Below are positions 23,607 through 54,160 of a DNA stretch of 64,000 nucleotides, piece after piece. This stretch comes from Marsupella aquatica (lineage: Eukaryota; Plantae; Marchantiophyta), in contig OZ316891.1 of assembly GCA_973895155.1 (NCBI GenBank), positions 23,249,899 through 23,313,898 on the forward strand, in the 5' to 3' direction. The notes beneath the pieces were generated by a model. The model did no database searches and was not told the DNA's origin. It saw nothing but the letters and a program-made list of their open reading frames with translations. The position numbers and the translations under genes are program-made. The stretch's first letter is position 1; each line of letters starts with the position of its first letter.

Positions 23607-26600
23607 TCATTGAGAATCCTCTGATTCCAAATCATCTGAGGAATTACTAGGATCGCTACTCGACTCCCTATCAGTCTCCTTAGCCGAATTGTCAACATAC
23701 TGTGCTACAGTCCCAGCCTCATCATCTATGAACTGAGGGCAGTAAAGGGCTTTCCGAACACCCCTCACTAACCGCAGACCTTTCCCCTCCCAAGTCAAAA
23801 TGATGGGCGCTTCATCAACCTCCTTTGCAGTCTTTTCAGCATAGCATGGAAGCGCAAATCCCTTCTCCCGGGCCCTTCTCAGGGGTCACAAGAAAATGAT
23901 CCTCGATTTCTTTCCGAAGGCGGAATCTCTCCTCCGAAACCAATCCGAACGCCTATCACTGAAGAAATCACCAGAATTGGATCAATACTACACATCCAAA
24001 AATTCTCCAAACAAAAGAAAAACACCAAATAGGGAGTTCTACATCAAAGGCCAAGTGCTTTACTCCAGGTTGAATTTATCCTTCTCGTCTGAAGGTCCTC
24101 CCTGATCATCTCCTGGGATGGTGAACTCATCATCCAACCCTTCATCATTGGGATCATCATTTTTCGGGTCTACGGCCCCTTTCAACTTTTGGGCATGTCT
24201 ATCCAACACATTTGCCAAAGTTTTTTGCGCACACAGATGAAGAATGTCTCGATCTTCAACACCCACAACAAATCTCCCAGCGTATTCCCCAGCGGCAAAA
24301 GCACTTCCATCTCCAACAATCCAGTCAATGACAATGTCCTTTGGCAAAGTAAGGATCTCCATTACGGCTTGCATGAACCCAACTGACAATCTATTGGAAC
24401 CTGCAAAAGCCGCCTTGGGATTGGGATCAGTTTTTGGGTAGCAAACACTCAACATCGATTTATGGTGGGCATCCTCCGAGGAAGTCATTGGAACATATCC
24501 TGTATGTTTCGGGACTTTTGCCAAGAATTCCACCTTGCAAAAGACATCCATAATGAGAGTAACCACCTGAATTGAAAACGAGAATATGTAAGAAATGGGA
24601 ACTTTTGGTTAGCGAGCTCGCTAGCAAAAATTGCACGAAAATATTGAGGATATCTTACCTCAATGTCCATATCTGCCTGATACAAAGGAGATGAAAGCAA
24701 AATCGAATATTGCCGGACATGTTTAAATTTGTTCTTCTGCTCGACGGCAATTTTTTTTGTCTCATATGGTTATAGTCAGAGCTATGAAGAACTGCAACAT
24801 AACCATTGTTGGCAAGCATCGGACACATGACTCCAAAGAAATAATATGGTAATTTCTCACTCCAAACATTCCACTTTGGGACCTCCCGGTCTGTGACGCT
24901 CGTTCGATGACCAGTGGGAAGGAATATGAAACCCAAGTGAGCACCAATTCCAGCGTAATGTTTTAGGGTGTTCATTGATCATCACGGCGTTTGGGTGTTC
25001 GCTCGATTTGTTCATTCCAGACAACCACTGATCCGCATCGCCCATCCAGGGAGGTCTTACTTTCCTCTGGCTAATTGAGTTTGCAGTTTCCGTGAGATTG
25101 CTCTTTGCCAAGAAATGCCTCTCACCGTCCTTCTCAAGACCACACATTTGTGCTACTCCTTGCGCGACGCATGCTTCCTCCTCATCCGAGTCGGAGAGAA
25201 TTTGGACATTGCGCTTCCTCTTTAAATGCTTGATTGAACCCAGGTCCACAGCAGATTTTGTTGTGACCTCAACATCAGGAGACTTGGGTTCTTCTCCATC
25301 ATTCGCCCCACTCTTCAAACTCCCAGAGGCTGCAGCCTTTCTCTTCTCTGAAAAACATGTTAATGTCAGACAGGTGACTGAGACAAAATTACTCCGAATG
25401 AGGTATGAAAAAAAGAGGAGAAAAAGACTTACTTTGCTTCCCAGACAAGACTGATCCATCCTTGGACGGGTCCTTCACCGGCACCTTCCAAGGTCTCCTC
25501 GATCTACTCCGGTCGACAATGGCAGCTACACCAAGAACAACTTTCTCTATTGCCTCACATCCACCAGCCTCGGCTTCTGCAGGAGCTAATTTGGACTCTG
25601 TAATGTACGACTCTGGTATCAAGCCTTGATTTATCATATGAAATGTTGCCTTCTCTGCTGTGTCAAATGTCACTGTCCATTTGTCTGATTCTAAATACCA
25701 TGGACAGTGAAGGACTTCCCACTCACTCATCTTCCTTGGAGCCTCCACTCCCTCACATGGGTACATTGAGTACTCTCCATATTTAACGGAGGTTGGATCC
25801 TCTTTCACTCCTACTATCCAAGGCGAGAAGCAAGCAGGATAGGACCACCAATATGTTTTGTCAACAACTTCTTTATCCACAAAAAAATGATACGTATATC
25901 TCTTCGCCCTCCTCCGAAAAAGTGAGATGTCAATCTTCTCACCCAACTTTGGTGGCCAAATCTGTCTGAAAAAATGAGATTTCACTCTCGTTTGGAAATC
26001 TTCAAAGTCCTCCTCTATGTCAAGGATCAGCGATGGCTTTGTCTTCTTAGAGGAAGTAAGGATCCTTGCATCTGGAATAGTTGGGATCATCTCTGAAATA
26101 ATCTCAGACATGAGCGAAGAACAAATTGACTCAACCTGCTCCCATACAGCCCATCGATGAAGCCAAAGTTTTGTTTCGCTGTCCAAGAATTGACCAGGGT
26201 GGAAGTACTTCTTGCGAAGCTCAAGTCTGCATTGTACCTCGAGGAGTACACATCTGAGCTGCGGAGTCAACGACAAGACACCCATAAATAGCCTCGCACG
26301 ATTGAGACCACATGACACATTACCCCTTCCTTTATCGTCTGTTCGTTGGGCCTCCTTCCTCTCATGTTCGCAGTAGTTGTGCATCTCAACACACTTCTGG
26401 AAAAAGTCACCAAACTCAGGATTCAGGATAGGTCCAATCTTTGGCACCTTCACATTCCAATCTGCTAGTTGCTCCTTCATCATGTCTTTCACTGCCATGT
26501 CTTGCGTAGCTTTTGAAAGAAGTTCTCCTTGCGCTTCTTTCAACTGGAACTTCTTCAAATCTTCCGTCTGTGCTGCAATATTAGCAGCAGACAGAATGTA

Positions 26601-27020
26601 CGTGCAAGCATCGAGTGTCATGTTCTTCGAATACCAAGCCGGTTTCCTGATATTTGCCATCTTCTACTGGAAAAGTTTGTAGTTGTCTGCATCAATGATA
26701 TCTTTGTATACAGAAAGGTCATTACTGAGCACCTTCTGGACTCTCTTTGCTTCAAGGACCCAAGAATTCTCAACGTGACATTGAGTCAACCTGAACAAAA
26801 GAAACAGGTCAGCGAGATCGCTAACAAGAGGAACTGAAAGAATTTTATATACAATTCAGAGCTTGAAGGAAAAGAAACAAACCTATTCAGCACATGCATC
26901 GCCGACTCAATCTGAACAAATGAGTTCTTGTCACCCTTGAAAATTCGGCAAACAACTCGAGGATGATATTTGACATCATGGGGATTCTCGTCCGCAAGCT
27001 GCATCCATGAGTACAGACAA
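23607..27020 (-). pseudogene. ParB-MTase-like gene (copy B), 5'-truncated; homologous to copy C
   Basis: YHPRVVCRIFKG, 423-aa helical middle ORF, GFIFLPTG...VPKWN, LSVGFMQAVMEILTLPKDIVIDWIVGDGSAFAAGEYAGRFVVGVE; introns at about 26882-26791, 25432-25348, 24658-24568 at the same positions as in C. Confidence 0.8.
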
Positions 27021-28768
27021 TCCTCACCCAGCCCGCTTCAATGCACCCTGTACACCTCTCAGTGGCGCTGCTAGTCCCATCATACACTCAGATTGCCTCA
27101 CACACACACACATCCATGAGAGAAATGAGGCCTGAGAGGAAAACTCAATTAGATTCAAAGATGTGCACAATAGTTCACTGAGAACACTTGATCAAAAAAT
27201 AGGCCCGAAGGCTGTCTCCTCCAGATTGCGACATGCTTGCCCTGCAAGCCCCGTGCTTGCCATGCAAGCTCAATCCTGAACCTGAGCCCGGCTCACTCCA
27301 GATTGCGACGGCAGATTGGACTCAAACCAATCCCGTACTTGCCTTGCAAACTCAATCCTGAACTCAACCTCCTTCACTGCACTTCATCCTCGGGGGCACG
27401 TACAGATCTCACACCTCCATTTCAGAATGTCAAGTATGCATGCACGGTTGACTCGACTTCAAAGCTGGTACCAGGCCTAACGGCGATCTACCCCAGACTG
27501 CAATGAGGCCTGGCCTCATGCTTGCCTTGCAAGCTCAGCTCTGGCCATAGATCCCTTAGTGCTCTCTACCAGACAAAGGCCGGGACTCCCCATGGATCAC
27601 GTAGCCTTGCCAGACTGAACTGTAAATGCTCCTCCTGCTGCCCCTCAAATAGTGTCTCAGCCTCCCTAATGTGCTCACCACAAATCAAATTGAAATCCTC
27701 CCCACAGTTTACAATCACCAATACATCACCTATCACCAAGGCTCTGTATCGGGGGAAAAGAACCCAGTTGTGCTGCCCACTAGAAAGAGCCACAATCCAG
27801 CTTGCAAACCTAGCAACCCGTTGCTGTGAAGCTTGGCTGATTACTCCCTGAGTAATAGCACCACCAAGCTCTCCCCAACACGCAGCGTCCAAGTCCAGCC
27901 TTGCTTGCACAGAGCTCCTCCCTGCTGCTCAGTCTACGTGAGATCACACAACTGGAGTTCCCCCCCCCCTTGCCTCTACCGGGGGTTGCTCTATATACTC
28001 TCTCATTGAGCCCAAATGGGTGGATGCTACGCTGTTGGAGCCCCATCCCAGCCCTAACAGAGCCGCCACTATCTCTAACTACTGAACCCTAACTCGCAGC
28101 TTTATTTCTATCTCAAATTGGCTATGTACTTTGGATTTGGCCCTCCTCCATGGTTTTTGCAAGCTTGCGCCTCCTCTCCTGATTTCTCTATTCAACCATT
28201 TGTTGCGTGGATAGCAGCGTTGGAAGCGGCTTGAGCTCCTCTTTCCAACGAGGTCAATTATAGCCGATTTGGTCAAATACACAGAGAGTTATGCCCCCGC
28301 AACCAAGAGAGGGTACTCACTGCTCCGCTAACCCGAGTTACATAGCTAACCCGAGTTCGGCTAACCTAGCTATCCTATCTAACCCAAGTAGAGCTAACCC
28401 GTGGTCTCGGGTTAGGCCGCTACCCGCTATCCGCTATCCGCTAACCTAGCCTAAGCTGAGCCCGAACCCGAGCTTACCTATGCTAACCTGAGCCCGAGTT
28501 TAGGCTAACCCGAGTTAAGTCTAACCCGAGATCAATCTAGTCCGAACCCGGGTTAAGCCTAAGCTGAAGCCGTGTTTACTGAGCTAAGCTGAAGCCGCGC
28601 TGACGTGAGCTAAGTTGAAGCTGTGCTGACCTGAGCTAAGCTGAAGCCGTGCTGACCTGAACTAAGCTGAAGCCGTGCTCACATAAGCTAAGCCGTGGTC
28701 GAGCTTGGGTTAACCCGAAACTGAAGCCGAATCCGCTAATTCCGGCCATAAGTTAACCCGTCACACTA
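27020..28768 (-). mobile_element. Truncated insertion with hAT-like end and AACCCG-rich and 26-bp subterminal repeats
   Basis: 28320-28760 is packed with gctaacccgag and gagctaagctgaagccgtgctgacct units; minus-strand end reads TAGTGTGACGGG; other end not found. Confidence 0.45.
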
Positions 28769-29044
28769 ATCAGGCCGTATCTTTCTTAATACCCCTCCGT
28801 TTCTCGAGTGTTTTATATCGATTTTACTCGCCTTGACCAGATCTTTCCAATGCTCTTTACAGATCCGGATTTGGTGATATATTGAAAGAGATATGGTCAT
28901 CGACCACCCGCGACATAGCTTTTATTTCCCTACTCTTAACGCCATGATTGCCCTTATTCTTGCCATCTTGCTAATTGTTATGCAATATCAATAGCTACTC
29001 CTTGCATACAGCAACCTACTTAATCAGATTACAAAATAAGGACC

Positions 29045-29914
29045 ATGTCATTGGCGTCACACTATAAACTGTGGGAAAGGCAGAGAACAGCACCAACATA
29101 TGTTCAGGCCTACCGTGTTGCTGACAAAATCCATCGTTGGTGGAAGGAAGGAAACTGCTATGCTGGGAAATTGAAGTCTCTCCAAGGATGGTTATCTTGG
29201 TGGGTCGTGAGGTGGAGGCAATGGGGGAACTTCATCCGCGTTGTAAGTGTCCAATTTCATTTCTATTTGACGTCATTGTTTTTGCTAGCGACCTTGCTAG
29301 CATATTAGGTCTGACTGGGGACAACTTTTTCGCAGACGCAAACCGCAATGGAGTCAGCCTTGATGCCAAATTGTACTGGAGCGGAATCAGTCCATGCATC
29401 CATGAGATCTTGCCAAATGAAGAAACTAGTGGGATTGATTGAAGCATGTGAGGTGGACCAGAATCGTGTTGCGGGGCAAATTGCTGCTTTTACTGCCTAC
29501 AGTGAAGGTGTTCATAGAGGCCAAGGGCCAACCATTTTCGAATTAGCATATAGGAACGCCGATGCTATGGGATCCATGGATGCTTACGAAAAGGCCGCAA
29601 ATCTTTTGCTTGAGTCTTCAGCTAAGTATGAATTCTATAGAACAGTTCCATTACATAGGGATCTCCAAACAACATCCACGAAGAGGAAAGGGAAAGCTTC
29701 AATTGTAATCCACAAGAATGACTCCCACAGACATGACAAGGTGTCACGCACAACAGCTTCTCCTTCAGGACTAAAAAGGCGTAATCTCTATCCTAAATTT
29801 TGCTTCGTTAATGTTTCGGAGACTTCTGCAGACCCAGAAATAGCAAATAATACAACTTCGGGAACCCCTGTCGGAGGTTGTTCTGCTGGAGTTATCCATA
29901 TCTCAGATGACAAT
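29045..29914 (+). pseudogene. Mutator-like transposase fragment (element B)
   Basis: GWLSWWVVRWRQWGNFI and PNCTGAESVHAS align with the element C transposase, with the same intron position; cut by the insertion at 29915. Confidence 0.8.
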
Positions 29915-32900
29915 TGTGGTGGTTCCCATGGCTCCCCAAACCCAACAAACCCCCCCGCACAAGCCGATTCCTGCAGGTTTCGTGCTCGGCGAGGCCGTTT
30001 CCGCGGCTTAGCGGCATGGGATGCTGCTAACCTCCTACTATACCTATTAACATTTTACACACATATACTGGATAGATCCTTCATCGGGTCATGAGATACG
30101 CAGTTGGCCTAATCTAGACCTTCTCTTGTCTTTCCCTCCTGTTGGTTAGGTATATTTGGATTCCGCCGTCGGAATGATCCCCAATTGGTTTGGTTAAGCC
30201 GCTAAGACCTCTCTCAGCTCGACACATCCAACTCTCACTCCCTTGCTTACTTCCCTTCTACTTGTTGATGTGGGCACTCTTCACACAAGTTAATGCGACA
30301 CACAAATAGCAAAATGACTCCTTCTGACTTAGTTATACCATGCACTTGCAATACAAACAGTACATCTCATACACAAGCTCTGCGAACTAAGCCGTGAGGC
30401 CAACTCTATTCAGTTCTTAGGTATGAGGAAACATGAATATACACAAGGGTCACTGTATAACTAACCGAGAGCTTCTCTTACTACTTTGATCCCAGCCCTG
30501 CTGGTGCAACTAAAAACTTGCTAAAGAAGAGGCCCTAAACTCCCCGTAGCCCAAGTACTTATCCTGGTCGTGGATCCGCCTGATTCCTTGCAGCGTAAGC
30601 CTAATCTACCTACTGTAATCTACCTGACTATAATCTACCTATGTACAGCGAGGCAGGAGCACAAGTGTTGCCCTCACCCGTGGATCCAAAATCCCACTAA
30701 TCTAAATGTCAGGGCCGTCTCCTAGTCCTGATCCTGATCCTAAGTCTAAACTTGGAGATCAGCGCCCGCCCTGCTCACTCACGCCTCCTACCTCCACGTC
30801 CGCCTTCCCTAAAAGGGACGGCGCCCTTACACCGTCATGACACCGGTGGCTGGTTCTCAATGGACGCCCCCAACGCTTCCTCCGTAGCCACTGTCGTTGG
30901 TCCATCTTCTGACAGATTACCTGCCCTTGACCGAGTCAACTCTTCATTGGCCTGACTGGGTCCACCCTTGGCTTCGGCCTCAGCATTGGTCACGGCCTCC
31001 GATACGACTACGGCCTCCCCGACATGTTCTAGTGGAGGATCCGGTACATCAACATCATTACTGGTTCTCCCGACCTCAGCCTTGCCATCTCCACTTCCTA
31101 GGACTGGTGGATCCATCGCCGTGCCGATGCCAAAGATTGGTGTCGGGTTTATCTTCTCGGTCACAACGGCTTGAGAAGCCGTATAACTCCCAGACCTAGA
31201 AGGTTTCTGCTTCTTCTTCTTCCCTATTTCGACAGCTGGTTCCTTCCCTTTGCCACTTACCTTCGGCACCGGGGTGAGTGTTTTGGCTTGTCCTACGGCC
31301 AATACTACCCTTGGTAACTGGGTTCCCCCAATTGGAGTTGGACCTGATGAAGCCAAGCATTTAAATACTGCGGCTTGTGTCTTCAGCCGCTCTGTTTGGT
31401 TGTCGGCCCGCCGCTATAGGTTCTCCATCTTCCTTGTGATTTCCTCCAACTCCTCCTGGGTCTCGTCCAGGTCCTTGCACGCCTCCTCCAGCTCCTTGTT
31501 GGCTTCCTCCAATTCTTTCTTTAAGGTAGCCCTCTCCTCCTGGGTTGCTCTTAGCTCCTTGTCGAGCTCTGCTACGACCACAGACTCCATCTTATTCATC
31601 TTGGCATAAGTTTGGTCGAGCTGGTTGTCCTTTTCATGCAGGTGAGCCTTGAAGCTGGCCGTTAGGGATGCAAGCTCCTGCTACAGCGCAATAATCCCTT
31701 GATAGGATTTCCCTAACTCTGCTTCCTTCTGCTCAAGGGCTCCACGGATATCTTTGAGCTCTCCTTTCAACGCCCTCTCCCTTCTCTGGTTCTCTACCAT
31801 TGCCCAATTGTTGGTTGCTAAGTGGGCCTCCTCTGCATCCCTTCGCTCCCGCTTCCATTTCTCTCTTTCTTTGACTGCGTCGGCCAACTCTCCTTGGGTC
31901 CGAGTCAGTTTATCTTTGATAATCTGATTGTCAGACTGAGCGGTATCCAACTGCCCCTGCATGATGTTTAGCTCATGCCGCTTAATCCGTAGCTCATCTT
32001 GGGCTTTCTTGGCCACCTACAGGACTTCCACCTTGGCTTCCTTCTCCCTAAGCCGCCGGATGACCTTGTCCTTCTTGCTTCTCTCCAAAGCCACCGCTTC
32101 TTCTAATCGGTGCTTTTCCAACATCTCCCTCTGGAAAAAGGGTCCCTGCTCCAACTCCTCCCCAAAGATGCTGAGCGCCAGGTCCCCACACATCTCCCCG
32201 TACTCCATGGCTCTACCCTTAGCATAGATGGAGTAACTAGAAGTCATCGGCATCAACCACCGCGGCCTTTGCTCCCAAGCCGCCTTGCGGATTTCTTCTA
32301 TGGTGGCAAGAGGGTTGCTTCTTTTTTTGGCAAGCCGCTTGATGTCCTCCGGCCAATCTCCTCCTGGTAAATCCTTCTCCCTAGCCAGGGCTGCTTTCTC
32401 TTCCTCCCTAAGTCGCTCCTGAAATTCTTGTGCCGTCTGCTTTATGCCGTCAAAGCTCGGGGGAGCAATCTCTGGTGGGGGAGACTCGGGGCTACTCTAT
32501 TGGGTGGGGTCCCCTCAAACTACTCTTGGAAGCGTGGGGATAAATCGGCCACAGGTCCTTACTCCTGGAACATGATGATCCGACCCATAGCTAGAGTTAT
32601 CATTGTTGTAGTCCTCCACCGCCTCCTCCACTACTTGGACTCCCGGCTTCTCCCTTTGTTCCCCTGGTCCAGTCGTGAAAATGGCCTCTGGTTCCTCTGG
32701 TTTCCAGGCTGTCGTCTCCCTTTGCTCTGCGCGGGAAGGAGCCTTAGGCTGCTCTGCCTCTGATTCGGGGCTTGAGGCTCCCACATACATTCACACTCCC
32801 GGCTTGTGTTCTGGCCTCCTTCTCTCCTTGGCTCCGATAAAGGGGTCTTCCCTTCTGAGTCAGCTTAGGCCGACCTTTGGGGGAGCGTCTTGTATCGGTG

Positions 32901-33327
32901 CCGTTGCCGTTGCCATTGCCGGAACTGTTGCCATTGCCGGAACCGTTCTCTTTTCCTTCAGCAATTTCAGCAGATTTTGCATGCCTGGTTGCTGCATCGG
33001 CAAGTCTTCTTTCCTTGTCCGAAACACCTACTCAATCATCGGACTGTCGGGCTGGTTGGGCTTCTCTGGTGCCGGCCCCTGCTCTGGAACCTCCTCCGGT
33101 GCCCTTGCCAATAGGGGAAGTACTGGGGCAAAGATTTGACTTTTGGCATACCGGCACAACAGCGGCATGTGATAGCCAAGCCGGGACACGCTTCCCACGC
33201 AGATCACCTGCTGTTCCTCCTTCAAGATCTTCTTCAGTTGGTTGAGGAGGTACCCGTTGTAATCCCTGCTTGGGTCTGGCCTTTCTGCCAGGTAGACCTG
33301 AGCCTTGCCGATCTCTGCCCTCGACAA
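29915..33327. mobile_element. Second, truncated copy of the TG...CA element
   Basis: Highly similar to 17107-about 20502, starts TGTGGTG; similarity stops abruptly near 33327. Confidence 0.92.
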
Positions 33328-34936
33328 GGCGCTACTCAAAATGAAAAAACGTAATCATACCAGTTAACAAAACTCAAGCCAAAATGATTTTTACTAAATT
33401 GAAAACATTGTGTATACACGTCGCTTCTACTAATGAAGCACAATACAAAATTCCAAAATGAGGAGCCTAAAGTCCACCTCCAGCAATTCAAAATTATTCA
33501 CCGGATCATAGATCGCATCAGCGAAACAAGTATCTCCGGGAGGCCCAAGAGCCTAACCACAAGTCTATTCAAAATGCCGGATCATAGAAAGACCCAAATC
33601 CGTCGTTGAGCCCTGCAAACTATAATCAACCTCACTCTAACGGAGCAATCCACGGTGAAAAAACCCATTCACAAGCCTAACCTAACCCCAAAATGAAGCA
33701 GCAAGTTCACCTCCTCCAATTCCAAACTACGAACCGGATGTGGTTCTCCTCCATGAAATGAGTAGCGCCTGGCGCTACCCAAGATCATGACCACGATGAT
33801 CCTAGGATGATCCCGGATCAAACGAAGACTCACATTCGTCGATGAGCCCTGCCTTCTTGTGTTTTGGCTTCTGTCAAAAGCCAAATGTTCGAGTTGCAAC
33901 GTACCGTGCACTTGGAAGCCTTCGCAAAGGGTGCGATGAAGACTCAGGAAGGTTTGTATCATAGAAATTGATACGACCAAGAAATTCAGCAGACTGAATT
34001 TCCACATCCCAGAAGACATTCGATGGAGGATGTTCGGGAGTTGGATAATGAATTGAGAATCTCTACTGAAATGGCCTCGGAGGAGAATCAGGAAGCCAAG
34101 GAATGTTCCGTTCACCCGGGCTCATACCCTCGTCCACAGGCAGTTGGAGACGATTCCTTATGTCGGAAGTCTCGGTCAGGCGACTTTCGGTGTCTGCAAT
34201 CGATGTCGATGACCCAAAGTTGACCGTCTGATCGGTCTACTCCTCCGATGCTGGCACTTTCCTTTGGGGCCGCACAACGTTATCGACATTGAAACCAGGA
34301 CGCTCCATATCGTCCATCGATGGTTACTTTGATCGGGTTACTCAACGCATGTAGCGCAAGAAACAACCTTCAAGCGCAGAGTATACTTTCCAAACCGCAA
34401 GAGCACAATGTGAACAGCTTCGTATGGAGGGATTACTCGAATGTATGCCCCCTCAAAGTATCTCCGTTTTTTTGATTCAACGGACATACGACCAAACCAA
34501 CTCATGAGAATGGACCGACGGGGAATATTTCCCCAACGGGTGCTAACGTTCATTAATTTATGAACTTAACCGACAAAACTTCAACGGTAATACTACTTCC
34601 GGAAGGCATATTATTGGCTAACGCCTGGCGCTATCAAAAACAAAGTCATTTCCAAATCTTTTTCGTTCCTTGAAAATTCTGAAAGTTTAGGGTTATTTGG
34701 TTAACTCCAGGCGCTATACAAATACGAGTCACCCAGAGCATGTCCCACAAATATTCTGAATTCAATTTTTGCAATAGTCTCTGGCATGAAGCTAGGCGCT
34801 AAAGTGAAATATTGAACTTTCATATTTCTCCAAGCTCACTTGAGAACATAATATACCAACTTGACTACAAATATTTGTTCACGTCTGAACATTTATATAC
34901 GATGGAATTGATACAAATGGGGTTCTCATAACTGAT

Positions 34937-37900
34937 CTACTCAGATGACTCTGTCTCACTACTATCGGATCTATTGGTCGACTCCGCCTCGTCGTTCACA
35001 AACTCACTCCGGCACATGTCATCCACGAATTTGTTCACCAAAAACTTCCTATCAGAACCTCTTCTAAGTCTCAGACCTTTTGTTTCCCAAGATAATGTCT
35101 GAGCCCTCTCTACTTTTTGGGCGGCTTTCTCAGCATAGGATGGGAGAATAAATGGTTTTTCTGGTGTAACCTCCATAGCTTCAGCGATCGTTTTCCGGAG
35201 TTCAAACCTTCTCCGCGTATTCCACTCCGACCTGAAAGTTTCATCCATATTAAAACAAACACTAAGTTTACCAAAAATATGTTGCTAAAAACAGTCGTAC
35301 ATTTGGAGTGAGCTTACGAGCATTACTCAGAAGACTCCTCATCCTCGGAATCACTTTTTGATCTCGAGGGATTTCTTTTCTCTGCCTCGTCGTCTCCTAG
35401 ATTGACAACTGGAATCTCTTCTTCATCAGATTCCCTAGCAACATCCGGCTCGCTCTCTTCGGAATCAAAGTTCAAAATTGATCGTACTCTGTCCAACTTC
35501 TCTTTCCCTTTCCTTGACAATCTCTTCTCTGGAGTCAAAGCTGACTTTGGCTCCAAAAGGTCAGCTAAGGTAAACGTTGAAGCCGTGACAAACTCTGTTC
35601 GCCCTTCCACCCCAACAACAAATCTACCACAATAGTCTCCCGCCACGAATGAACTTCTTGAGCAACAAGTCCAGTCGATCACAATATCCCCTAGACAAGA
35701 GATGATCTCTATAACAGACTGCATAAAACCAACTGTGAGCCTCCCGTTTCCACAAGCCACAAGTTCTGGTATTGGATCCAACTTTAAAGATGGAAATCCG
35801 ATCAGATTTGTAATTGAAGGATCTTCGGAAGGCAACAATGGACGGAACTTGGGATCTTTCGGTATTGTTGATTTTCGCAAAACCCGACAGAATATATCCA
35901 ACCGCAGCGTGAAGATCTACAAAACAATAGAATAGTAAGACCATGAAACAAAAAGACACAGATTAGCGCCTGGCGCTGGCCAAAATTAAAGAGATACAAG
36001 ATTAGCGCCTGGCGCTGGCCAAAATGAATGACATTAATTACTTGAGTGTCAGACTTAGGTTTGTACATAGGAAACCCCATGACAACTGTATACGATGCAA
36101 TACAGTCAAACTTTTGCGACTGCTAGCATGCAGATATCACTTCCAAAATCTGGTCATATTCTCCAGTGTGAAGAATAGCCAGAACTCCGTCGTCCGATAG
36201 GAAAGGGTCCATTGCGCTAAAGAAAGCCCCAGGGAGAGAGTGGTCTTGCACATTCCATTTCGGGACTTTCTTGTCCAAAAGTGATGGCCTCAATCCGGTA
36301 GGCAAATACAGAAATCCTGCATCCACACCAAATGTCCTAACTTTTCCACCTCTAATAACCCCCTTTGATCGAGAACCCGACTTCACAAGATTCTTTCCCC
36401 AGGTTTCTACCTGAGAAACCCAAGATGGCTTCTCTTCCTTTTGAAACACACTATCGTAGAACTCTGCCAAGGTAGACTCCACGAATGTGTGCCTGGTTTT
36501 ATTTCCCTTGAAGTCCCCCACATTCCTCTGTAAACCAGTCGCCGCAAGCGTTTCCCTATGAGACCCACCGGAAGTAGAAACGTGACATTTCTTCTTCTTC
36601 CTAGTGCTGGTGGCATCCACTGGCGGAGCACTCACATCTTTCGGGGTCTCCGACCCCTCTGGTCGATCCTCATCCTTCCCAAGACTGTTGTCACGAGAAG
36701 GCTCCGGAGTTGCAGTCAAAGCATTACCCGACACCAACCCCGCATCTGATTTCCGAGATCCTGCTAGAGAAATTGTTGTATTAATAACAGCTCCTGGCGC
36801 TAGCAATATAGAAGACTGAAAATTACGAAGATTTGAAGCTACCAAATTAGGAACTCACTTTTTTGGTCTCTTTTTTAGATCCACTTGGGGTTGTTTCTTG
36901 CTTGGGTTTTGCTCTTGGTTTTCGACTCCTTGCAACTTGGACGACTTGCGTCTCACAAATCCGTTGGAGCTCTATCGCCGAGAGATCAATCTTGGCATCA
37001 ATTCCCTGCTTCATCTTTGACAAAATGTTTCTGGGCTCCAAATTCTTTGATAACTTGTGAAAAGCATCTTTCTCTATCTCATCAAATGGTGAATTCCACT
37101 TGTCTGTGTCAAGATACCACAGACAATGCACAACCTCCCACTTTGCCATTTTCCTTGGGGGAAATTTTCCCTCCGGTGGGTACATGGTGTACCCAAGAAA
37201 GTCTCCAGACACTTCGGACCTCATATTCACAACGGCCCATTTCTGGAAGGCACCAGGATAAGCCCAGAAATAGCCCGGGTCACTCCTCTCCATTTTCACA
37301 TAGTATCGATACAAATATCTCTTGGCTCTCTTGCGGTTAACTTCACTCAAATCCTCCTTGTCAGCGTACTTGGACTCCCAAATAGTGTTGAAAAACTTGG
37401 CCCTTACGGAATCCCCATACTTTCTAAAATCATCTACAATCAAAGCCTTCAACTTCTCAAAGGGAATCAGTTCTCCACCGAGTGTTGTAAGACGTTGTTC
37501 GGTGCATGAACCCATAGCCTCCTTCAAACATGCCTCGAGGAGAGCAGTTGCCATCCCCTCAATTGTGTTCCAAACATGCCAGGTGTGGCACCACTACTTC
37601 ACGGGGTCGTCCGATACTCCGAGCGGATGGAAAAACTGTTTCCTTAACTCGGGAGTACAATGTGCAACAAGCAATGTACTTTGCAATTTTGGATCTAATG
37701 CCAAATTGGCAGTGAACAAGCGAGCTCTATCCATGGTGCAGAATACAGCTTCAGGTACCTTTTCACGTTTGAGTCGATCTGTAAGACAATACATCTCAGC
37801 ACAAGTGTCCATGAAATCTTCAAACTCTGGGCTCAGCAAGGAAGTGAGCTTTGGAGTTTTCACAATCCACTCCTTAGTGGCTTCCTTCATCATCTGACTG

Positions 37901-39059
37901 TGACAAAGATTTGTCTCTTCGACCGACCATGGAGCGTCGGAACTGCTCGCCTGGTTCTTCATCACCTGAAATTGCTGCGAGTACAATTTGATCTTGTTTT
38001 CACACAAGATGTATACCAACGCCTCCATCGGCATCTTCTTGGTAAACCAAGAACCCTTTCGGGTTTCTTTCCTGGTCTTCTCGAATTTTGCATAATTTGC
38101 CTCATCAATTATGGGTTTGTAGTACTCCAGATCATGAGCCAAAATCCTCCTAATTCTGTCCGCATCCAAAATCCAAGAAGACTCTACCACTGCCTGTCCC
38201 GTCCTGTGCAATTGAGGACATTAGAAATAGCGCCTGGCGCTAACCTAACAATACAATCTGAAAAAGAGAGAAATTGTCGAAGGGAAACAATAAAATTTGA
38301 GAAGACTAGTCGGTGGTGAAAGAAAACTCACTGGTTAACAATATGCATCGCTGCCTCAATCTCGATGATTGATGCCTTCTCTCCTTTGAAAATTGTGCAT
38401 TGCACGCGAGGATGATACTTAGGATTCTCTGGACTCTCGTTTGTGACTTGAGTCCACGAAAACAACCGATGATTTCCATCAAAAACATAGAACATTTTGT
38501 CCTTGAGGACGTGGAAAGCGGGGTCTGATTCACATTCCGCTTCGAACAAGTCGTTCTCCATGATCCAAAGAGGATCCCAAGTACCGCGAATTTCATCTGT
38601 ACAAATCTGAGGATTACCTTCAGCGTTGGATGGTTGAACAAAAAAGCGCATGCCAATGGACGAATTGTATCCAGATGTCCGGAACGAGTCCTTCAGCTTC
38701 TCAATCGATTGACTGTTCCTCTGAAGAGTGCGCACAACCTCCATGTGAACGAGACAACATAAAGGAATTCTTGGAGGCTCCTTTGGTAACCCATTCGCAT
38801 CAACTCCAAATGACATCACGTGCTTTTCAATGACATCGACCACCAATTTCTCAATGTCATCGACATTCTGAACGGCAAACTCACCAACATGTTCCATTTT
38901 CAATAGCCTCGGTTTTGGACAGGGAAGCTCAACTTGACTGAGAGGATACTGCGCTATGGAACGAGTTACTCTTCGACTTGAAACACAACTGGAATACGAT
39001 GACTCTGAGGACTGGGAATGGTTTGGCGACCCACACCCCATTTTGATATACTCTCTCAA
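34937..39059 (-). pseudogene. ParB/Srx plus beta-class N4/N6 DNA-methyltransferase-like fusion gene (copy C), near full length with a few lesions
   Basis: IEKLKDSFRTSGY...FYVFDGNHRLFSW (ParB/Srx GxHR); intron 38331-38204; GFLYLPTG...VPKWN...FLSDDGVLAILH; LTVGFMQSVIEIISCLGDIVIDWTC...AGDYCGRFVVGVE. Confidence 0.85.
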
Positions 39060-40138
39060 CTGCGATGCGGAGATTTTTGCCGTTCAATTTTGTTTCATAC
39101 GGGATTTTGTTTGGGAGTTCGTACGCTTAATCGTGCGGATTCTCCTTACACGCATCCCTCAATGACACCAACGCAAATGAGAAGAATCTGCCTCAGCAGG
39201 AACAATTCCAAAGGAAGCAAAGTACCCTAAATGTACGATGACTGGACTTCTGGCGGCATGTGAGTCGGGGGACGTTGGACACCTGGAGCGAAATGCACCG
39301 TTGATTAAATCTGGGACTGACCAGTAGACCTCATAGTTCGTAAAGAGGTATCCGTTTAAGTTATCGTGGACCTGCTACTTCCATAAATATTATACTCGAA
39401 TCGACTAAAATGTCCGTTGAAGTTACCATTGAATAGCGAGTCGTTATTAGATAGCGCCCGACGCTATCATTGTTGTCCGTTGTGAAGGTTCCTTGAATCT
39501 AACATGAACATCATATTTAGCATATAAGTTTTTACTAGCGCCAGGCGCTAGTAAAAATTGGCAGTCTAGACCCTTCAAAACTTCACTCTAAGTTTTGTTA
39601 GCGCCTGGCGCTATCATAGGGAGATGTCGTTCTTGTCTCTTTATCCTCTCATATATAACACGGAAGATAATATTCCTTCAAGAACATAACATTTCTTTTC
39701 GAATACTTTACTAGCGTCGGGCGCTAATAAACATTAACCTGATTACCCTTTAAAGTTACCGTTTGATTATAGAGTACAACTTTGATAGCGCACGTAATCT
39801 AGCTTTGGGAGTTATCGTTACGGACCAGATATGCATGATACATATTTGCTAGCGCCTGGCGCTATCAAAGGTGTACTCGATACAATCTTGTCATCTGAGA
39901 TGATTCTTGGCAAACCATCCATCAATATGTGCATATGGAGCCTCAAGTTTTCATCTCCCTTACTTAGCGCCAGGCGCTATTATTTGTGTGCCTTGAAATT
40001 TATGTTCAAATTTTGATCAATAAGATTTTCTTGGTAGGTGCTGACATGTGTAATTCCGTTAGAATACGACAAGCATTCATTGCTAATAGGTCACTTTGTC
40101 ATATTCGTAACGGTTTTATTCAGCACAAATGAATTTAG

Positions 40139-43100
40139 GTGGCCTTACATTTCTGTACGCCATTTCCAATGGACTCGCGAATTGTAATTTCTCGCTGTCC
40201 GCCTGGTGACCTCGTGGCAATCCTGCTCGCCGCTCCTAAGAAAAATGATGAAGTTTCTGAGGAATATCTTGCCACCAGGTTTGGAATTCCCAGGGAAAGC
40301 GATGATGTTCTACATGTCCAGCGATGATGTTCTACATGTACGCATCTTCCAAAGTTGATGCCGAGTCTGCTAAGCATATGTCGCGGCTTGCCATTCACAT
40401 CGGACATCATAACCATCCGAGCAAGCAAGTTTTTTCAAGAGAGGCAGAGAAAGTTGCAAAGATGCACATGGAACAAGGTTTGACTTTGAATCCGCGTGCA
40501 ACTGCGGTGGGTATGAAGAACACCGTCACCTCGTCTCTTTTTAAGGCAATGTGTGAGTCGTCAGTTCAAGACATGATCCCAATAGAAGAGACCAAGATTT
40601 TTGAATCTCTTCAAGTCATCTCAACGCCTCAGAAATTTGTGAACCTTCTGAGGAGTATCCGTCAAGACCAGAAAGGCAGAGGTGAATTGGAATTTCTGGT
40701 AAGCATGTAGAAGAACATTTCATTCCCATTTCTGCAAAGGTTCTTGTTGCCGGGACAAGGGTCTAGAGATGAGAGTGCACATATTTTCAAGATGTCCACT
40801 AAGGGTGAAGGCTATGGTCTGGACCTTCTTTGAAAGATGAGTCCCGGAGGGCCTCTTGAGGGTTCGTGGGTAAGTTTTGATGTGATGCACCAAATGACAA
40901 AGGATTGGCTTACATTTAGTGTACATGTTTATGACCATAACTATCGTGCACTTTGCACGATATTCACTTGCGAGTTGCGAGCAGAAGATACAAAATCCCT
41001 TGAGAGGTCTTGGCGTTTAATGTTGGAGGTGGCTGATGAGAACGGTCTTCACGATGTCCACATTCATGGTTTTATGGCGGACAATGCTCAAGCTGGTTGG
41101 AATGCTGTGAGGAATGTGTTCTTTGGGGGACTTCCTCATCCCGAACGTGAGCGATCAGATGCATTTCACTTCTTTCAGTCATTTCGGAGACACTCAATTG
41201 AAGGCATTCCTGAGGGAAAGCAGAGTGAACATCGTGCCCTATGGGATAGGTTGCGGAATGCAAAGTCATTTATCAAGGCATATCGTATTTCTAGAGAAAT
41301 TGATTCATGGTGGAGGGCAGGGAATTGTTATCCTGGTAAATTACGAATGTTGCAAGGTTGGATTTCATGGTGGGTTGTCCGATGGCGCCAATGGGGAAAC
41401 TTTATTTGATTGGTAAGTATTCAAAACAATCGTTGGTCAGAGCCTGGCGCTACTCATACATGTTCAAAGTGATTACATATGCTATTGTTTCTATGTGTTC
41501 ATTGGCTAGCGCCTGGCGCTACTCATACAGGTTCAAATTGATCATATCTGCTATTATTTCTATATGTTCATTGGCTAGCGCCTGGCGCTATTCAAGTCCT
41601 AAATCTAACCTTGTCGGTGAATTCTGCAGAGCAAGAGTGCAGAGGAAGCGGCAATGATTCCAAATTGTGGTGGATCTGAGTCGTCTCACGCGTCAATGAT
41701 TGCCTGGCAATTGAAGAAGAAGGTTGGAGTCTTTGAAGGGTGTGAAACCGACCAGAATAGAGCGATCTCTCAAATTGCAGCCTATACGGCTTACAAGAGA
41801 GGATTGAACAGAGGGAATGGCCCAACTGTGTTTGGGCTGGCTTTTCGCTCTGCAGATCTAGCGGGTTCCCCAAGGTTGTTTGAAGAAGCTTCAAACCTTT
41901 TCCTTTCCAATGCGGCTGAATTCGATTTGGAAAGGAATTCCCCTTTGAACGGGGATGCTCGGGGGTTTCACTTCCACAAAAATGGCATATCACGTGCGAC
42001 GAAGGATAGGGTCATTTTATTGGTTGTAAGGGAAGACTTAAGAATTTTTGTAGAAGAACAATAGGGTCTTTAAATTCAATTTTGAGACTTATAAGAACAT
42101 TAGGGCCGTTTTAATCCAATTTTTGGAATATTCCAAGAATATTCCAACTTTATAGGGGTTAAAAAATAATAATTTTTTCTTGCATTTTATGGGGTCTGAG
42201 GCCTAAAAACGTCGCAGGTGATGGGGAGGTCCCCATATAGTGAGACCCCTGAGCGGGGATGTACAGACCCGGTCAATAAAGAGGAAGGGACATGCTACTG
42301 GAAATGTCTCTGCGCAAGACTCCCACAGGCATGACACTATCCTCATTACGACCCCAAACACCCGAGGTTTGAAGAGAAGAAATCTCAATAGAACGGAATT
42401 CTCTGCGATTCCTTCTGAACCAGGTCCCCAAGAGAGTGTAGTCGTCAATAGTTCAGAGAGCGATGCCTCAGCTAGTCTTGAAGAGCGGACACCTCCTCCT
42501 CCGATGGAGACGAGGTCATCTGCAACTCCAGTCACGACCCCAGTCCATGTTATTGAAGAAGTAACCCCATCCGTGTTGGAGTCCAATGTTCCTTCTGGAG
42601 CATGGCATATTAGGAGAACTTCGAAGCATGGTGCTGGCCCAGTCTACAATGGATCCCTTGGCGGACATGGAGATCGTGACGAATGTAGAAATCGATTGAA
42701 GAAAGTAGGCTACCGGACGTCAAACGGAGTCGTTGGTATCGCAGTTTGAGCAGCGCAAATTTTCAGAGGGGAACACCTCCAGAACTGATCTGGTTCTGTC
42801 CGAATAATGTTTTTTACAAAAGTCGTCCTCGAAAAGGTGTGGTGAATGTTCCACCACCTTGTGATCACTTGCCCATTGCATTGACTACAAATCTTTCTAC
42901 TGCGGAGGTAGAGTTTCTGAAGGGCAACGGAATATCGATCGGAGGTGAAGGTGATCGTGTAAGAAATGCACCAAGTGGACTAGATCTTCAAATCGATGTC
43001 AATGTTTTCCCGGAAAGGATCAATCTGCTTCAGTCGACAATTCGCTGTTTATCTCGAAACGGGAGGACGTGCCTACAGAGAGTGCATCTAACTAAATCGC

Positions 43101-43444
43101 ACTATAAGAAGATTGAGGCAGCTGATAAAGAAGAAATGAAAATAATCTGTTCAAGGGATGTTGCGACAGGAAATGGATGGGGCAAACAATTTTGCATCCA
43201 AACACACATTGGTCACCACTCTATCATTGCCTATTGGGTTCAGATTTGCTGCTTCCCGTGCTGTTCTTGCAAAGATTTCTATCGTCGTCATGCCCACTGC
43301 AAACCCTTCCTGCCTTGCAAACATCTGTATTGGATTTATAAGAATGTTTTCAAACTGGACCTTCGAGAATCAACGTTGTCGAGTCAGCCTATACTCACCG
43401 TTGGAGAAATACGTCTCTTGTTGGAACGACAAAGTTTAGGGTAG
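40139..43444 (+). pseudogene. Mutator (MULE)-like DDE transposase with C-terminal SWIM zinc finger (element C)
   Basis: SFDVMH (D), GFMADNA (D), DAFH at the CxxH position, PNCGGSESSH (E); SWIM YWVQI..CSCKDF..PCKHLYW; premature stops at 40708, 40831, 41408; intron from 41413; MITE insertion. Confidence 0.85.
41958..42253. mobile_element. MITE, CTCGGGGG-TIR family
   Basis: Perfect TSD cggggatg; removal gives NGD|VQTRSIKRKG, matching HRDLQTTSTKRKG in element B. Confidence 0.93.
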
Positions 43445-43959
43445 TATTTAAAGAGGTGTCTATTATGTAGTTAACGTTCCAATGGTCAGTACTTTGTCGT
43501 TTTCCAACAGCATTATCATATACAGAAGCTTATTGAGAATGAATGTATTAGACAATGTTTGGTTTCGTAAAATAGGGTTGAGTCATTGATAGCGCCTGGC
43601 GCTAGTATTATTTACATATTTTCCTCAAAATCTTCCTTTTGAGGTTAGGGAGGTGCCCCGTTTTGTTTTTAATTGGTTTTGAACATTTTCAAGTGGTTCG
43701 AGAGACTTGGCACTCCACTTTTCATGGAATTTTTTGAATGTTTTTTAATTGGTGTTGCTCACAACAGTACGGAGGATGACAATTCCTTGAATGTTTTTCC
43801 TGATGTGAGTAAAAACATTGCTGATAACAGGAAAACTCTCCTGATATGAGGAAAGTTTTTGCTCGTATCAGTAAAAAAATCTCCTATTTCCTGGCACGGT
43901 GTAAAGCCTCCATTTTTTTCACAAAACTCTATTCGGAGTGGATTCAAACTATCATGTGG

Positions 43960-44470
43960 CACTAGAAGAAAACAGGCACTACAACATATTTTGCCCTTTT
44001 GCGAAGCTCATTTGAGTCCGGACACACGTTTGCGATTCCAGATGCTTCAAACCGTTGATGACTCAATACGCATCGCAATTTGCGATACTTGTGGTATCGC
44101 AACTTTGGTCTTCCATGTGATTTGCATCGCAAACATTTTGCGAACTTTATTGTATCACAATAGTTTGCGAAACTACAGAGATTACAAAACACATTACGAA
44201 GGCTCCACGACCGCTCCGAAAGTCTGAAACCACGGTAACATTAATGATGCAAAACAATTAGTATTGGAGGATGTTTGCGAAAAGGTTAGCTTCAAACAAT
44301 TTGCGATGGGTTTGTATGGCAAATGTGCGAAACGATATGGATGGTAAAGGTGGGATGGTCTGGATATCGCAAAATAGTGAAGCGTATAGTATGGAATAAT
44401 TGAGAAACGGTTTAAATGGCAGAATTGCGATTTGGTTGGGATTTGTTTAGTTTCGCAAACAGTTCGCAAA
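43960..44470. mobile_element. CACTA terminus (two stacked TIR starts) with TTTGCGA/TCGCAAA subterminal repeats
   Basis: CACTAGAAGAAAA at 43960 and CACTACAACATA at 43977, followed by about 15 TTGCGA/TCGCAA motifs in both orientations. Confidence 0.75.
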
Positions 44471-44876
44471 CGTTTATGTTAGACTTGTGTGTGCATCTAG
44501 GTTAGAGTTTGAATGGGGGAGGAGGAGGGAGGGAGGTGAAAGGTGAAAGAGGGAGGAAGGGAGTTGGAAGGTGGATGAGGGACGGAGGAAGAAGGGAGTC
44601 CAAAGAGGGTTTACTAAAAATAGGAGAGACTTTAGCGAAGAGGGAGGGAGGAGAAAAAGCTATGGAGTTTTTGGAAGAGGAAGGAGTGTTTGGGTTCAAA
44701 GAGGGAGGAGGGATAAGGGAGGGAGTACCCATGTCACTTATATGCATGACCTCTTTTGAAAGTAGGAGTCCAAAATGAAAATACCTACCACACTAATGGT
44801 GTATGAAATATTAATTAAGAAACAACATGAACAATCCATGATATAGATTTTTGGTTTAAATATCCATAAGTGTCTC

Positions 44877-47800
44877 TCACACTTGGTCACCTTCAATGTC
44901 CTCTACATCTGACACAAAAATAGTGTCTGGCTTGTCTGAAACAATGGAATGAGACCGTGGCACATATGTGATGACAAGTGACCACTCTGGGTCTAAGGGG
45001 TATGGAACGTAGAAACATTGCTCCAAGTGAGATGGGAAAGTAAATGGCTCTGACGTTTGCCAATGAGATGCTTGAAAACTAGTGGCACTTGTCCTCAACC
45101 GTGTAAACCCACTCTCATCTTGGAGTACAGTGCGATTATTACCAACAAGGTTCACTTTGAACCACTTGCACTTGAAGACATACTCCTCACCTGGGCCCCC
45201 AGCATTATTAATAATGGGCTGGACGTGCGAACGGATGAAGGGTGCAAAAAATCTGATTTGAGATTAATTTTTATAATTGACTTAAAAATATCAAGGGATG
45301 TTTTTATTCAAAGAACCCTTTCTAACTAATATAGGCTTATATAAATGTGACCCAAGTTAATATGCTTCAAGAGGTGATGTAATATGGATGTGACACGCGT
45401 CACAATAGGATTGGTCCTTGTGGTCACCCTTTATTGGAACATGTGTATATGACATATAATTATGCTTGCAACATCTATGATTCAGAGTAGTTTAGGACTT
45501 TGGAGCTTTTGAACCCTGACTACCCTGCCCTGTGGTTCAAAAATGCCCCAAAGTTGAAGTTTGGGGTTAAAGGGTCACGAAAACAAAAATGTATGTACCC
45601 AAAACCCTTCCAAAACACTCCCGTCAGTTTTAGAACCGTTTGCACATGATGAGTTTATAACTTTTCAAGGCTTTCATAAATGGTGTAAAATGTGAAATTA
45701 TAATATCTCAAAGGGGCAGATTTATTCTCCAAAATTAAGTTTTTAAGAATAACAAGAAAATTTTTTATAGGCTTCCAAAAATAATAAGGGGTACTAGGGA
45801 GGGGGGTGTACGCACGTATACCTCTTTAGTTTACAAAGGCTGGGGGCCCAAGGACTCCTCAAACTTAGATTGGTTGTCATATGAGACCACCAAAATCTCC
45901 TCTATCTTCCCATAGTGTGGCACAACATCACGAACAATGTTCCTATCATGTCGGCTACTCCGGGAGTCCTGACAAAACTGCCCTTGAACTCCACAATCAA
46001 AAGTACGAGCCTCTTCTCATCAAGGGAAGAAATCCTGAAATTAACAAGACCCATATATTGTTACTACTACACAAAAAACACTAATCATGTTATGAGGAAC
46101 CTTTCATACCAAAAGAGAAAAACACACTTATCTTAAGTAAAATGATTACTATATCTTAAGTAGTAGTACATGAATATGGAAAACAAGGTTAGGAACTAGT
46201 GAAACCTGAAGTGTCTCCCTTGGGTCCACATGGCCGTCTTGGATGTTACCACTCTCAAAGGGCCATGAACAATGGTCCGAATGTCATTTGTCATAGTAGG
46301 AAACTGTGAGACATCTCCTCCTTGTGCCAAAATGCCATCCAACTCAACCAACTTTTCCTTCATAAACTCATGCAACTTAGGAAAAATCCTTGCCCTTTGA
46401 CTCATTCTTTTGGCATTGTCATAAAACTCCCTCCATTCATCCATGACATTGCTATTACTCAACATGAATGTATTCAACTGTGTCCACTCTGTTGATGTAA
46501 GCATGCGTGTTTTTGTTGCTCCTGTTAAACGGTCCTCCTCCTCTTGCCTCTCCTCCATCCAAGTACGTGGTAAAGTCCGATCAATGGTGGCCAAGATGTT
46601 ACTACAATAAAACATGCTCTTTGCAGCCAAGTATCCTGTAGCTATGCTTCCCTCCACTCGTGCACGGTTACGTACATAAGCCTTCAAGACTGACATGTAA
46701 CGCTCAAGCCAGTACATCCATCGACAATGAACTGGACCAGCAATGGCAACCTCCCTCACAAGATGCACAAGTAAATGAACCTGACAATCAAAGGAAGGAG
46801 GGAGGGCCTTCTCCAACTTGCAAACCACCTCAGCTGCCAATACCTCCATTCCAGGAATCTCTTCCACATATATCTCCTTTGAGCATATCCATCTCAACAA
46901 ACGACCCAATGACCAAATGGCATCTTGCACTTCTTTGGTCCCCAACCCTATAATTGCCACTGGCAATATATGCTACAATAAGCGGTGATAGTCATGTGTC
47001 TTGAGATACCGTGGCCATTTGTGATTGTCCTCCATCCCAAAAGCTTTCCTCAAATTGGCACCATAGCCTGTAGGAAACCGCATCTCCCCTATACGATTCC
47101 GGAATTCACGTCTTTGGCCAACACTAAGCACCCAAGGAGCAGAAGGATGATGTTCCAAACCTGTGGCAGGATCAACTTGTACCCATACATCTGGATGCAT
47201 TTCCAACTCTTCACATGCCTCCCTGAAGTTAGTGTCCTTCTCCCCATAAAAATGAGCTATCAACGCCTTCCCCACATTTCCCTCTATGTGCGTGGGGTCT
47301 AAAAGATGGCGGATCTTCAACTCTGACCAATAGGGCAAACTGGCTAGTATACTCCACCTCGTCAACCCAGTACCATCAAAGGTGAGGGGATCATCAGGGT
47401 CTGCCACCCTATCAGCTAGTGACTTCCAATGCCCAAAAGTTGTTGGTTCCGGAATTTCCCGCATATCACCAAGGGGCATGTCAAAGGAGGAAAATAAAAG
47501 TGGGTCAGACCTCATCTCATGCCCCATCGGAAGAAACTTTGTATGCCCAATGTAAACAATCTTCCTAAGCCATGGGGACCAAATTGCCATATCTTGCAAT
47601 TGTGGACCACAGGTGGAGCAAGCTTTGTACCCCTGAGTTTGCAATCCAGAGACAAAGCCAAACCCTGGTTACACCAAAAATAAAACCAGACTAAATGTTA
47701 GGGTTGTCACATGACAAACAAGTATATTAAAGAGCATATCAAAGAAGGGTGGCATATGGTCAAAAAGTCATCTTACCAAGATAGTCATGCATTGTCCAAC

Positions 47801-49479: not shown

Positions 49480-51789
<2,310 letters not shown>

Positions 51790-53991: not shown

Positions 53992-54160
53992 TGTTTACAT
54001 GTGTACATGACATATTCATTATGGGGTGACCCTTGCATTTTTCATTATTGATGTTTCACTGTAAGCTTTATCACATAAACCCTTTCTCTAATTGTTATTT
54101 GTCATTGCATATTGAAAACTCTAGGATGGTGTACATATTACTCCCACACCTCACCCATCA

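Follow-up and report, generated by a model that had tools for sequence, protein, structure and literature searches.

Transposon escape from host silencing has been demonstrated in very few systems (VANC proteins and transposase self-activation), and ParB-type accessory genes accompanied by repeats are so far a hypothesis from algae. The closest described case is Sola1-1_Ec32 of the brown alga Ectocarpus, in which a 1104-amino-acid protein with ParB-like and N4C/N6A methyltransferase (MTase) domains is encoded opposite the transposase, with a proposed role in binding and modifying the element that carries it; the paper also cites similar proteins from green and red algae (PMC12477816). In the Plavaka elements of the red alga Bostrychia, the ParB-like domain of PAG3 lies beside tandem inverted repeats proposed as parS-like sites, and PAG2 and PAG3 are reported to occur on Mutators of Chondrus as well (10.1101/2025.02.11.637652). 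Investigation of a 64-kb stretch of the Marsupella aquatica genome (contig OZ316891.1, positions 23,249,899 to 23,313,898; all 64,000 nucleotides are referred to here as the window) revealed a related layout in a copy of a Mutator-like DNA transposon, called element C (33329..43665), which carries a transposase gene, an accessory gene in head-to-head orientation that encodes ParB-like and MTase-like domains, and a set of short palindromes.

Element C resembles Sola1-1_Ec32 in having the ParB-like and amino-MTase parts in one protein encoded on the strand opposite the transposase; it differs in that the Ectocarpus element has a Sola-1 transposase and a brown algal host, and the likeness is one of architecture as described. 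Moreover, the main text of PMC12477816 does not contain the word 'palindrom', and the catalytic motif is degenerate in element C. With the Plavaka PAG2 and PAG3 genes it shares a ParB-like accessory protein, adjacent inverted repeats and an N6_N4_Mtase gene within the element, whereas Plavaka, as described, joins ParB to a 2-oxoglutarate oxygenase, encodes the MTase separately, with SET, and has its repeats in tandem arrays; in element C one protein combines ParB and MTase, and the sites are scattered over introns and promoter. VANDAL elements of Arabidopsis are likewise Mutators with an accessory gene, VANC, the product of which binds family-specific non-coding motifs, and in both systems such motifs occupy introns and upstream regions and were multiplied by tandem repeats, but the VANC motifs are 8-9 bp long, non-palindromic and co-oriented, and binding and hypomethylation have been demonstrated for VANC (PMC5735166). 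A VANC-type domain was not detected by Pfam in the element proteins, a direct VANC sequence comparison not having been made. Bacterial-type amino-MTase domains are also known in eukaryotes from MpDN4MT1 of Marchantia and from N4CMT of bdelloids, the latter of the beta class; these are described as host genes with intact SPPY and demonstrated activity, whereas the protein of element C is element-borne, fused to ParB and without SPPY or DPPY. ParB-HTH (helix-turn-helix) MTase fusions have been listed in chlorophytes, and land plants are reported to have few N6A-MTases (PMC4738411).

A first-pass annotation of this locus had proposed a self-marking transposon whose protein loads at the palindromes and spreads. 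A similar design had already been put forward in 2025 for transposons of algae; what is new is the land-plant (liverwort-related) Mutator host, the positional conservation of the palindromes and the probable pseudo-enzyme, so that element C extends the design to land-plant Mutators. The literature search found no land-plant case, with Iyer et al. 2011, Repbase and the supplements of the papers as places that may list such elements. Our preferred reading, to which we give a probability of about 0.45, is that the accessory protein may bind the palindromes of its element non-catalytically and as a dimer, keeping the family expressed and shielded.

Palindromes in the non-coding DNA of element C and its relatives

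The palindrome pattern TAGCGCCWGGCGCTA was scanned across the whole window at up to two and up to three mismatches. Seventeen matches were detected at the lower threshold, nine of them exact, and the identical 17 at the higher one; all lie within 33763-43604 and none elsewhere in the window, compared with means of 0.05 (up to two mismatches) and 0.43 (up to three) in shuffled sequence, where 17 was reached in none of 100 shuffles. Modelled exons are touched by none of the 17 sites, and the stretch 40701-40740, which was added by an enlarged transposase exon, likewise contains none. Given that 32% of the element span is non-coding, confinement of this kind has a chance probability near 5e-8 with all 15 internal sites counted and near 1e-6 with the 12 independent internal sites that remain when tandem duplicates are collapsed.

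Regarding their placement, three of the four accessory-gene introns carry the palindrome: an exact copy in intron 1 (38228..38242), a degenerate copy in intron 2 (36788..36802) and two copies at 35964 and 36003, related by a 39-bp duplication, in intron 3 (35964..36017). Six copies, with starts from 39452 to 39965, are present in the divergent promoter or shared upstream region (39452..39979), and three, starting at 41438, 41507 and 41576, form a 69-bp tandem in the transposase intron (41438..41590). Three further copies (33763, 34619 and 34702; 33763..34716) lie past the 3' end of the accessory gene, with an additional half-site at 33329, and pattern scan and contig comparison place an exact copy (43590..43604) beyond the transposase near the presumed right end. 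The first-pass annotation, which had counted about 16 copies within the element and outside exons, is borne out in these placements, in the 69-bp tandem and in the extension of one promoter site to a perfect 29-bp palindrome at 39529-39557. Long perfect palindromes grown from single sites were thus seen both here and in a metagenome contig, L001 (1172-1231, 29-bp arms).

Two relatives allow the positions of the sites to be compared. The paralogous element B (23667..29912) is interrupted, its middle (~27030-29040) being replaced by unrelated repeat DNA, and has the same two genes at 33-53% identity. Its 14-bp palindrome TAGCGAGNTCGCTA occupies three introns, at 24610, 26810 and 29286, whose orthologues in C are intron 3, intron 1 and the transposase intron, respectively; the pattern was derived from those same sites, and its four matches elsewhere, at three mismatches, are at chance level. 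Contig L001 (2078 bp), the single locus to which 126 candidate stretches in metagenome contigs reduced, has 66% transposase identity to C and three TAGCGCCGGCGCTA-type sites in the matching transposase intron, one of which is a 60-bp palindrome with perfect 29-bp arms. Viral contigs contained no transposase relative. In local alignments of introns, C and L001 as well as B and L001 share essentially just the palindromes, and C and B share nothing above chance; global intron identities are inflated by gaps and were unused. Synonymous sites between C and B have reached saturation, with pS of 0.77-0.96 in the four blocks that were in frame; the other two of the six blocks compared, mid1 and mid2, were not and were left out. 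That orthologous introns, otherwise unalignable, have kept palindromes despite this saturation indicates selection on the sites.

The outer TAGCG...CGCTA and the intron position are conserved, while core and spacing are family-specific: CCWGG in C, CCGG in L001 and GAGNTC (GAGCTC or GAGATC) in B. The first-pass annotation had pointed to CCWGG as a link to methylation, which the cores of the relatives do not support, and judged from these sequences CCWGG is incidental to the palindrome. The variation of the core between families also led to rejection of a Dcm/CCWGG reading. With at least three related families that have distinct, position-conserved palindromes, swaps of protein and site could show specificity.

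Domains of the accessory protein

The accessory gene was modelled on the minus strand as five exons with predicted GT-AG splicing (39041-34937, 1219 codons), with a likely start at ATG 39041 and two internal TAG codons. A fused homologue of Riccia sorocarpa (P0104, 1207 amino acids) aligns over residues 70-1062 (E=6e-77, obtained with a slightly earlier gene model). Exon 1 (38332..39041) encodes a low-complexity N-terminus and a ParB/sulfiredoxin-fold domain with the DGNHR motif, exon 2 (36859..38203) an all-helical domain of ~400 amino acids with 100 relatives at E<=1e-3, exon 3 (36042..36761) a linker and the N-terminal half of the MTase-like domain, exon 4 (35327..35916) its C-terminal half, and exon 5 (34937..35231) a conserved C-terminal tail with 43% identity to paralogue B in an in-frame GT-AG model. 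The 5' splice junction of exon 3 (intron 2) is uncertain by 1-4 nt. Pfam searches with 11 pieces of the C copy gave no MULE (Mutator-like element), SWIM, ParB or N6_N4_Mtase match, and the MULE, ParB and MTase assignments rest on homologues, Atlas clusters and structure; direct PHROGs and PDB sequence searches with the window exons were uninformative.

The fold of exon 1, which the first-pass annotation had proposed from the DGNHR motif, was supported by several structural comparisons. The AlphaFold model has a pLDDT (predicted local distance difference test score) of 81.8, and in a VIA search of 48,161 chains all 12 rows at Z>=2 are ParB/sulfiredoxin-fold proteins, judged by their titles, led by KorB (8qa8, Z 6.5, root mean square deviation 3.5, 95 aligned), PadC (6.0) and sulfiredoxin (5.7), the top Z falling short of 8, the value from which results of the tool are usually trusted. 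The best Foldseek rows among PDB and viral structures are Noc, ParB, sulfiredoxin and phage ParB, none at E<=1e-3, and Atlas clusters for the domain include fungal DUF3723, cnidarian and ParB_N (11% of members). The fold call from these models is sound, with modest individual scores.

Like the bacterial ParB, Noc and KorB clamps, the element has a protein with this N-terminal fold, GxxR and dyad sites of 14-16 bp, but EN(I/L)QRE, a detected HTH and ParA are lacking, large domain insertions are present, and sulfiredoxin, SerK and SbnI match exon 1 about equally well. The CTPase (cytidine triphosphatase) motifs of ParB clamps are described as GxxRxxA and EN(I/L)QRE (PMC11229316). Exon 1 reads GNHRLFS, in which GxxR is kept and the Ala of GxxRxxA is absent, and the position of EN(I/L)QRE, placed by eye, reads MHIVNQ or MHNLNA. 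CTP-dependent loading and spreading, as proposed in the first-pass annotation, is therefore doubtful. Regarding the helical middle domain, the model of a 906-amino-acid homologue has pLDDT>90 over most of residues ~190-580, and neither Foldseek with this model nor a PDB profile search gave a match.

The C-terminus was supported as derived from a beta-class amino-MTase, in line with the permuted N4-C/N6-A MTase-like domain of the first-pass annotation: the order of motifs is permuted, with the motif IV position ahead of motif I; two of three MTase homologues in one set (P0110, 31.7 bits, and P0116, 27.0) exceed the cut-off of 26.7 for Pfam PF01555 N6_N4_Mtase, and three others fall just short; the homologue profile matches DpnA (E=0.0015) and CcrM (E=0.0088); and the exons of C are linked to this family by hhalign (exon 3, E=7e-10) and by BLASTP (exon 4, E=9e-11 to Riccia P0104). 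In D/SPPY catalysis the acid or serine is described as contacting the target amine and the Tyr as stacking on the base (PMC10406627). The motif IV consensus (D/N/S)PP(Y/F) is absent from both elements, the position reading YLPT in C and FLPT in paralogue B. An aromatic fourth residue was found in none of 23 homologue motifs, 19 of which read D[LM]P[ST]G, the 23 having been chosen by a pattern that demands the Asp. The Tyr of YLPT is probably a family state, as its codon shows no majority difference among the matches listed (40 of 61 rows). Motif I reads DWTCCSRSS in C, where it has no glycines, and DWIVGDGS in B, and is kept in all 21 pattern-matched homologues. The MTase-like halves of C and B are 42-46% identical although synonymous sites are saturated; taken with the missing DPPY, this points to a domain that is conserved yet likely not an enzyme, at least in the two families of this genome. 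Thus the domain is likely catalytically dead, a probable pseudo-enzyme on the evidence of its motifs, and the methyl marking claimed in the first-pass annotation is correspondingly disfavoured. A possible MTase pseudo-enzyme changes the mechanism assumed in the literature.

Candidate binders of the palindromes

Dyad symmetry, confinement to non-coding DNA and family-specific cores together suggest a dimeric binder encoded by the element. The degenerate motif IV, the missing EN(I/L)QRE and the lack of a detected HTH favour non-catalytic self-recognition over methyl marking or CTP-dependent sliding, and the conservation of the MTase halves without DPPY fits a retained non-catalytic role. In the red algae the repeats adjoin the ParB-like PAG3, as described, despite a transposase of another superfamily, so that repeats appear to follow the ParB gene. 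In the preferred reading the accessory protein would recognise the non-coding palindromes of its own element as a dimer, and binding would maintain expression of the family and protect it against host silencing, in the manner of VANC in VANDAL elements; both divergent genes would be under control of the six promoter sites, and occupancy would be extended along the element by the sites in introns, at no cost to coding sequence.

Several points weigh against this reading. The anti-silencing role is borrowed by analogy from the unrelated VANC proteins, intron 4 of the accessory gene in C and intron 2 in B have no palindrome, and Foldseek and the PDB profile search detected no HTH or other known DNA-binding fold in the middle domain. 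The Riccia members keep the Asp and a glycine-rich motif I (DFAGGWG in 14 of 21), so that some of them could still methylate, and L001, at 2078 bp, is too short to reveal the presence of an accessory gene. Furthermore, the transposase family has, by eye, a Cys/His zinc-binding N-terminal region of its own, and the palindrome at 43590 is no more than ~60 bp from the presumed right end, a possible place for transposase binding.

An unlikely alternative is that the transposase itself binds the palindromes, in autoregulation or end synapsis, with the ParB-MTase gene as a passenger or otherwise employed. It would account for the conserved palindrome that all three relatives compared carry in their transposase intron and for the one subterminal copy, it agrees with the lack of an HTH in the accessory protein, and transposases are described as potential sequence-specific activators (10.64898/2026.08.24.746577). 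The same source locates the AtMu1 transposase peaks at its own terminal inverted repeats (TIRs), whereas 13 of the 17 sites of element C are in introns or the central promoter, distant from the element ends, which argues for the accessory protein, as does the occurrence of repeats with ParB-like genes in algal elements that have other transposases.

The first-pass model, a CTP-dependent clamp that loads at the palindromes, spreads from them and methylates the element that encodes it (4mC or 6mA), is in our view improbable. The ParB/sulfiredoxin fold of exon 1, the beta-class motif order with the DpnA and CcrM matches, the Asp and DFAGGWG of Riccia members and the equivalent proposal made for Ectocarpus are consistent with it, but motif IV without a base-stacking aromatic, the glycine-free motif I of C, the absent EN(I/L)QRE and the non-conserved CCWGG core speak against it. 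We consider equally doubtful a version in which transposon families of liverwort-related land plants have a ParB-fold protein that is a nucleotide-gated clamp spreading from family-specific intron palindromes, and an MTase domain that is a non-catalytic base-flipping reader or shield; if true, eukaryotes would have a site-and-clamp code for self-recognition that co-evolves within each family and is open to direct tests in liverworts.

It is similarly improbable that the accessory protein binds the palindromes for control of transposition or copy number, by bridging TIR-poor halves or by KorB-like promoter repression, instead of protecting chromatin. The sites run the length of the element, six of them in the promoter, the repressor KorB is the top VIA row (within 1 Z of PadC and sulfiredoxin), and no TIR or target site duplication could be placed at the two end regions of C, which share just the palindrome and a 16/18 match (33681-33698 with 43632-43649, E 0.1-0.2). 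Long TIRs are typical of the Mutator superfamily and missing in non-TIR MULEs (PMC6446971). Target site duplications in this superfamily measure 8-11 bp. However, the left end is truncated, so that the absence of TIRs is not established, and a shared fold proves no function. Host-factor sites, RNA hairpins or neutral products of slippage or template switching are highly improbable explanations: some copies were produced by local tandem duplication and the growth of single sites to perfect palindromes of 29 bp in C and 60 bp in L001 suggests template switching at the site, but most sites have unrelated flanks (50% flank identity in 4 of 136 pairs), the window has none outside the element, their position has persisted through saturated divergence and cores that differ between families speak against a single fixed host factor.

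Transposase, state of the copy and neighbouring elements

The transposase (40139..43444, plus strand) is a MULE-like pseudogene with a DDE core at 40834-41409, an intron at 41413-41629 and, by eye, a SWIM-like CxC...CxH tail. Ten relatives have 49-69% identity over the core, and the best named Atlas clusters for one of them (P0138) are MULE (0.95, with PF10551 in 61% of members, and 0.93, 78%). The family keeps FDxMH, FMADNA, DxFH and then ESxH, acidic motifs in agreement with what we take to be the MULE DDE consensus. Pfam gave no MULE match in 11 window pieces or eight relatives, and a PDB profile search with the transposase gave no match. Named relatives of both genes come from Calypogeia fissa, and of the accessory gene from Riccia sorocarpa, where one gene model also includes the transposase N-terminus; these two species place the system near transformable liverwort models. 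The Riccia gene model P0047, which is also the one misaligned row of alignment A4, fuses the transposase N-terminus to the accessory middle domain (E=4e-18) in the same orientation, so that the two genes are linked in Riccia too.

The head-to-head arrangement with a spliced minus-strand gene described in the first-pass annotation holds, but the copy is not intact. Exon 40306-41412 of the transposase contains three stops, 40701-40740 being a stretch with an in-frame stop and not an intron, and ~220 N-terminal codons were apparently lost at a 19-bp duplication. The accessory gene has TAG at codons 440 and 898. Comparison with contigs of four runs (X1 to X4) showed CAG in place of the first (37594-37596, exon 2) in X2, X3 and most of X4, a change not shown by X1, and the second (36123-36125, exon 3) is private to the C copy, all four runs having A>G at 36125 (CAG). 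A frameshift at 36122 was rejected, an in-frame stop being present there. Both genes are broken and the copy is dead. Many divergent contigs cover the element in the four runs, which shows a dispersed multi-copy family, with depth giving no copy number.

The extent of element C was set from its left junction, contig comparison and the neighbouring CACTA terminus at 43960. On the left, a 3.4-kb piece of a high-copy repeat truncates the element at 33328; the junction (33328-33334) splits a palindrome midway, of which the half-site remains. The right end is probably at 43605-43665, where contigs per run drop from 6-9 at 43581 (4 in X1) to 1-2 by 43665. A 296-bp miniature inverted-repeat transposable element (MITE; 41958..42253) with the 8-bp target duplication CGGGGATG was inserted in the transposase gene and is missing from other copies, the empty-site joint (41949-42254) being present in all four runs; an intron at 41958-42253 was thereby ruled out. 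The MITE belongs to a high-copy family of ~300 bp with 8-bp target duplications, with further copies at 6285-6579, 7636-7745 and 53631-53748. The piece that cuts element C (29913-33328) and a second one (17105-20502) are 96% identical, both begin TGTGGTG, each breaks a transposase gene, and they probably derive from a long terminal repeat retrotransposon of very high copy number.

A more distant element, A (~7500-17100), has minus-strand open reading frames (ORFs) that are MTase-like and possibly ParB-like, and its own 21-bp GGACTNGGATNNTCCNAGTCC-like palindrome in 43 copies, 12 of them dispersed and 31 in a 27-bp array (~14030-15200), one lying within an ORF. A weak match (E=4e-5) was obtained for its MTase motif I region, while its ParB-like ORF had no match to the ParB alignment and ORF 9144-9839 none to the MTase alignment; its resemblance to the Ectocarpus and Bostrychia layouts is suggestive but falls short of proof. 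The adjoining 16163-17105 is a transposase fragment, Sola-like by eye, a second, partly inverted copy (93%) of the right-hand region of element A (15612-16171) was found at the end of the window (63448-64000), and an ORF with a NIF/FCP1-type phosphatase domain (6509-7252, minus strand; Pfam E=1.6e-14) adjoins the element. Elsewhere in the window, CACTA/EnSpm elements with Transposase_21, DUF4218 and DUF4216 occupy 43960-57400, and seven copies of a different palindrome, GCGATACCGGTATCGC, are present at 22235-22980, five of them in a 59-bp tandem.

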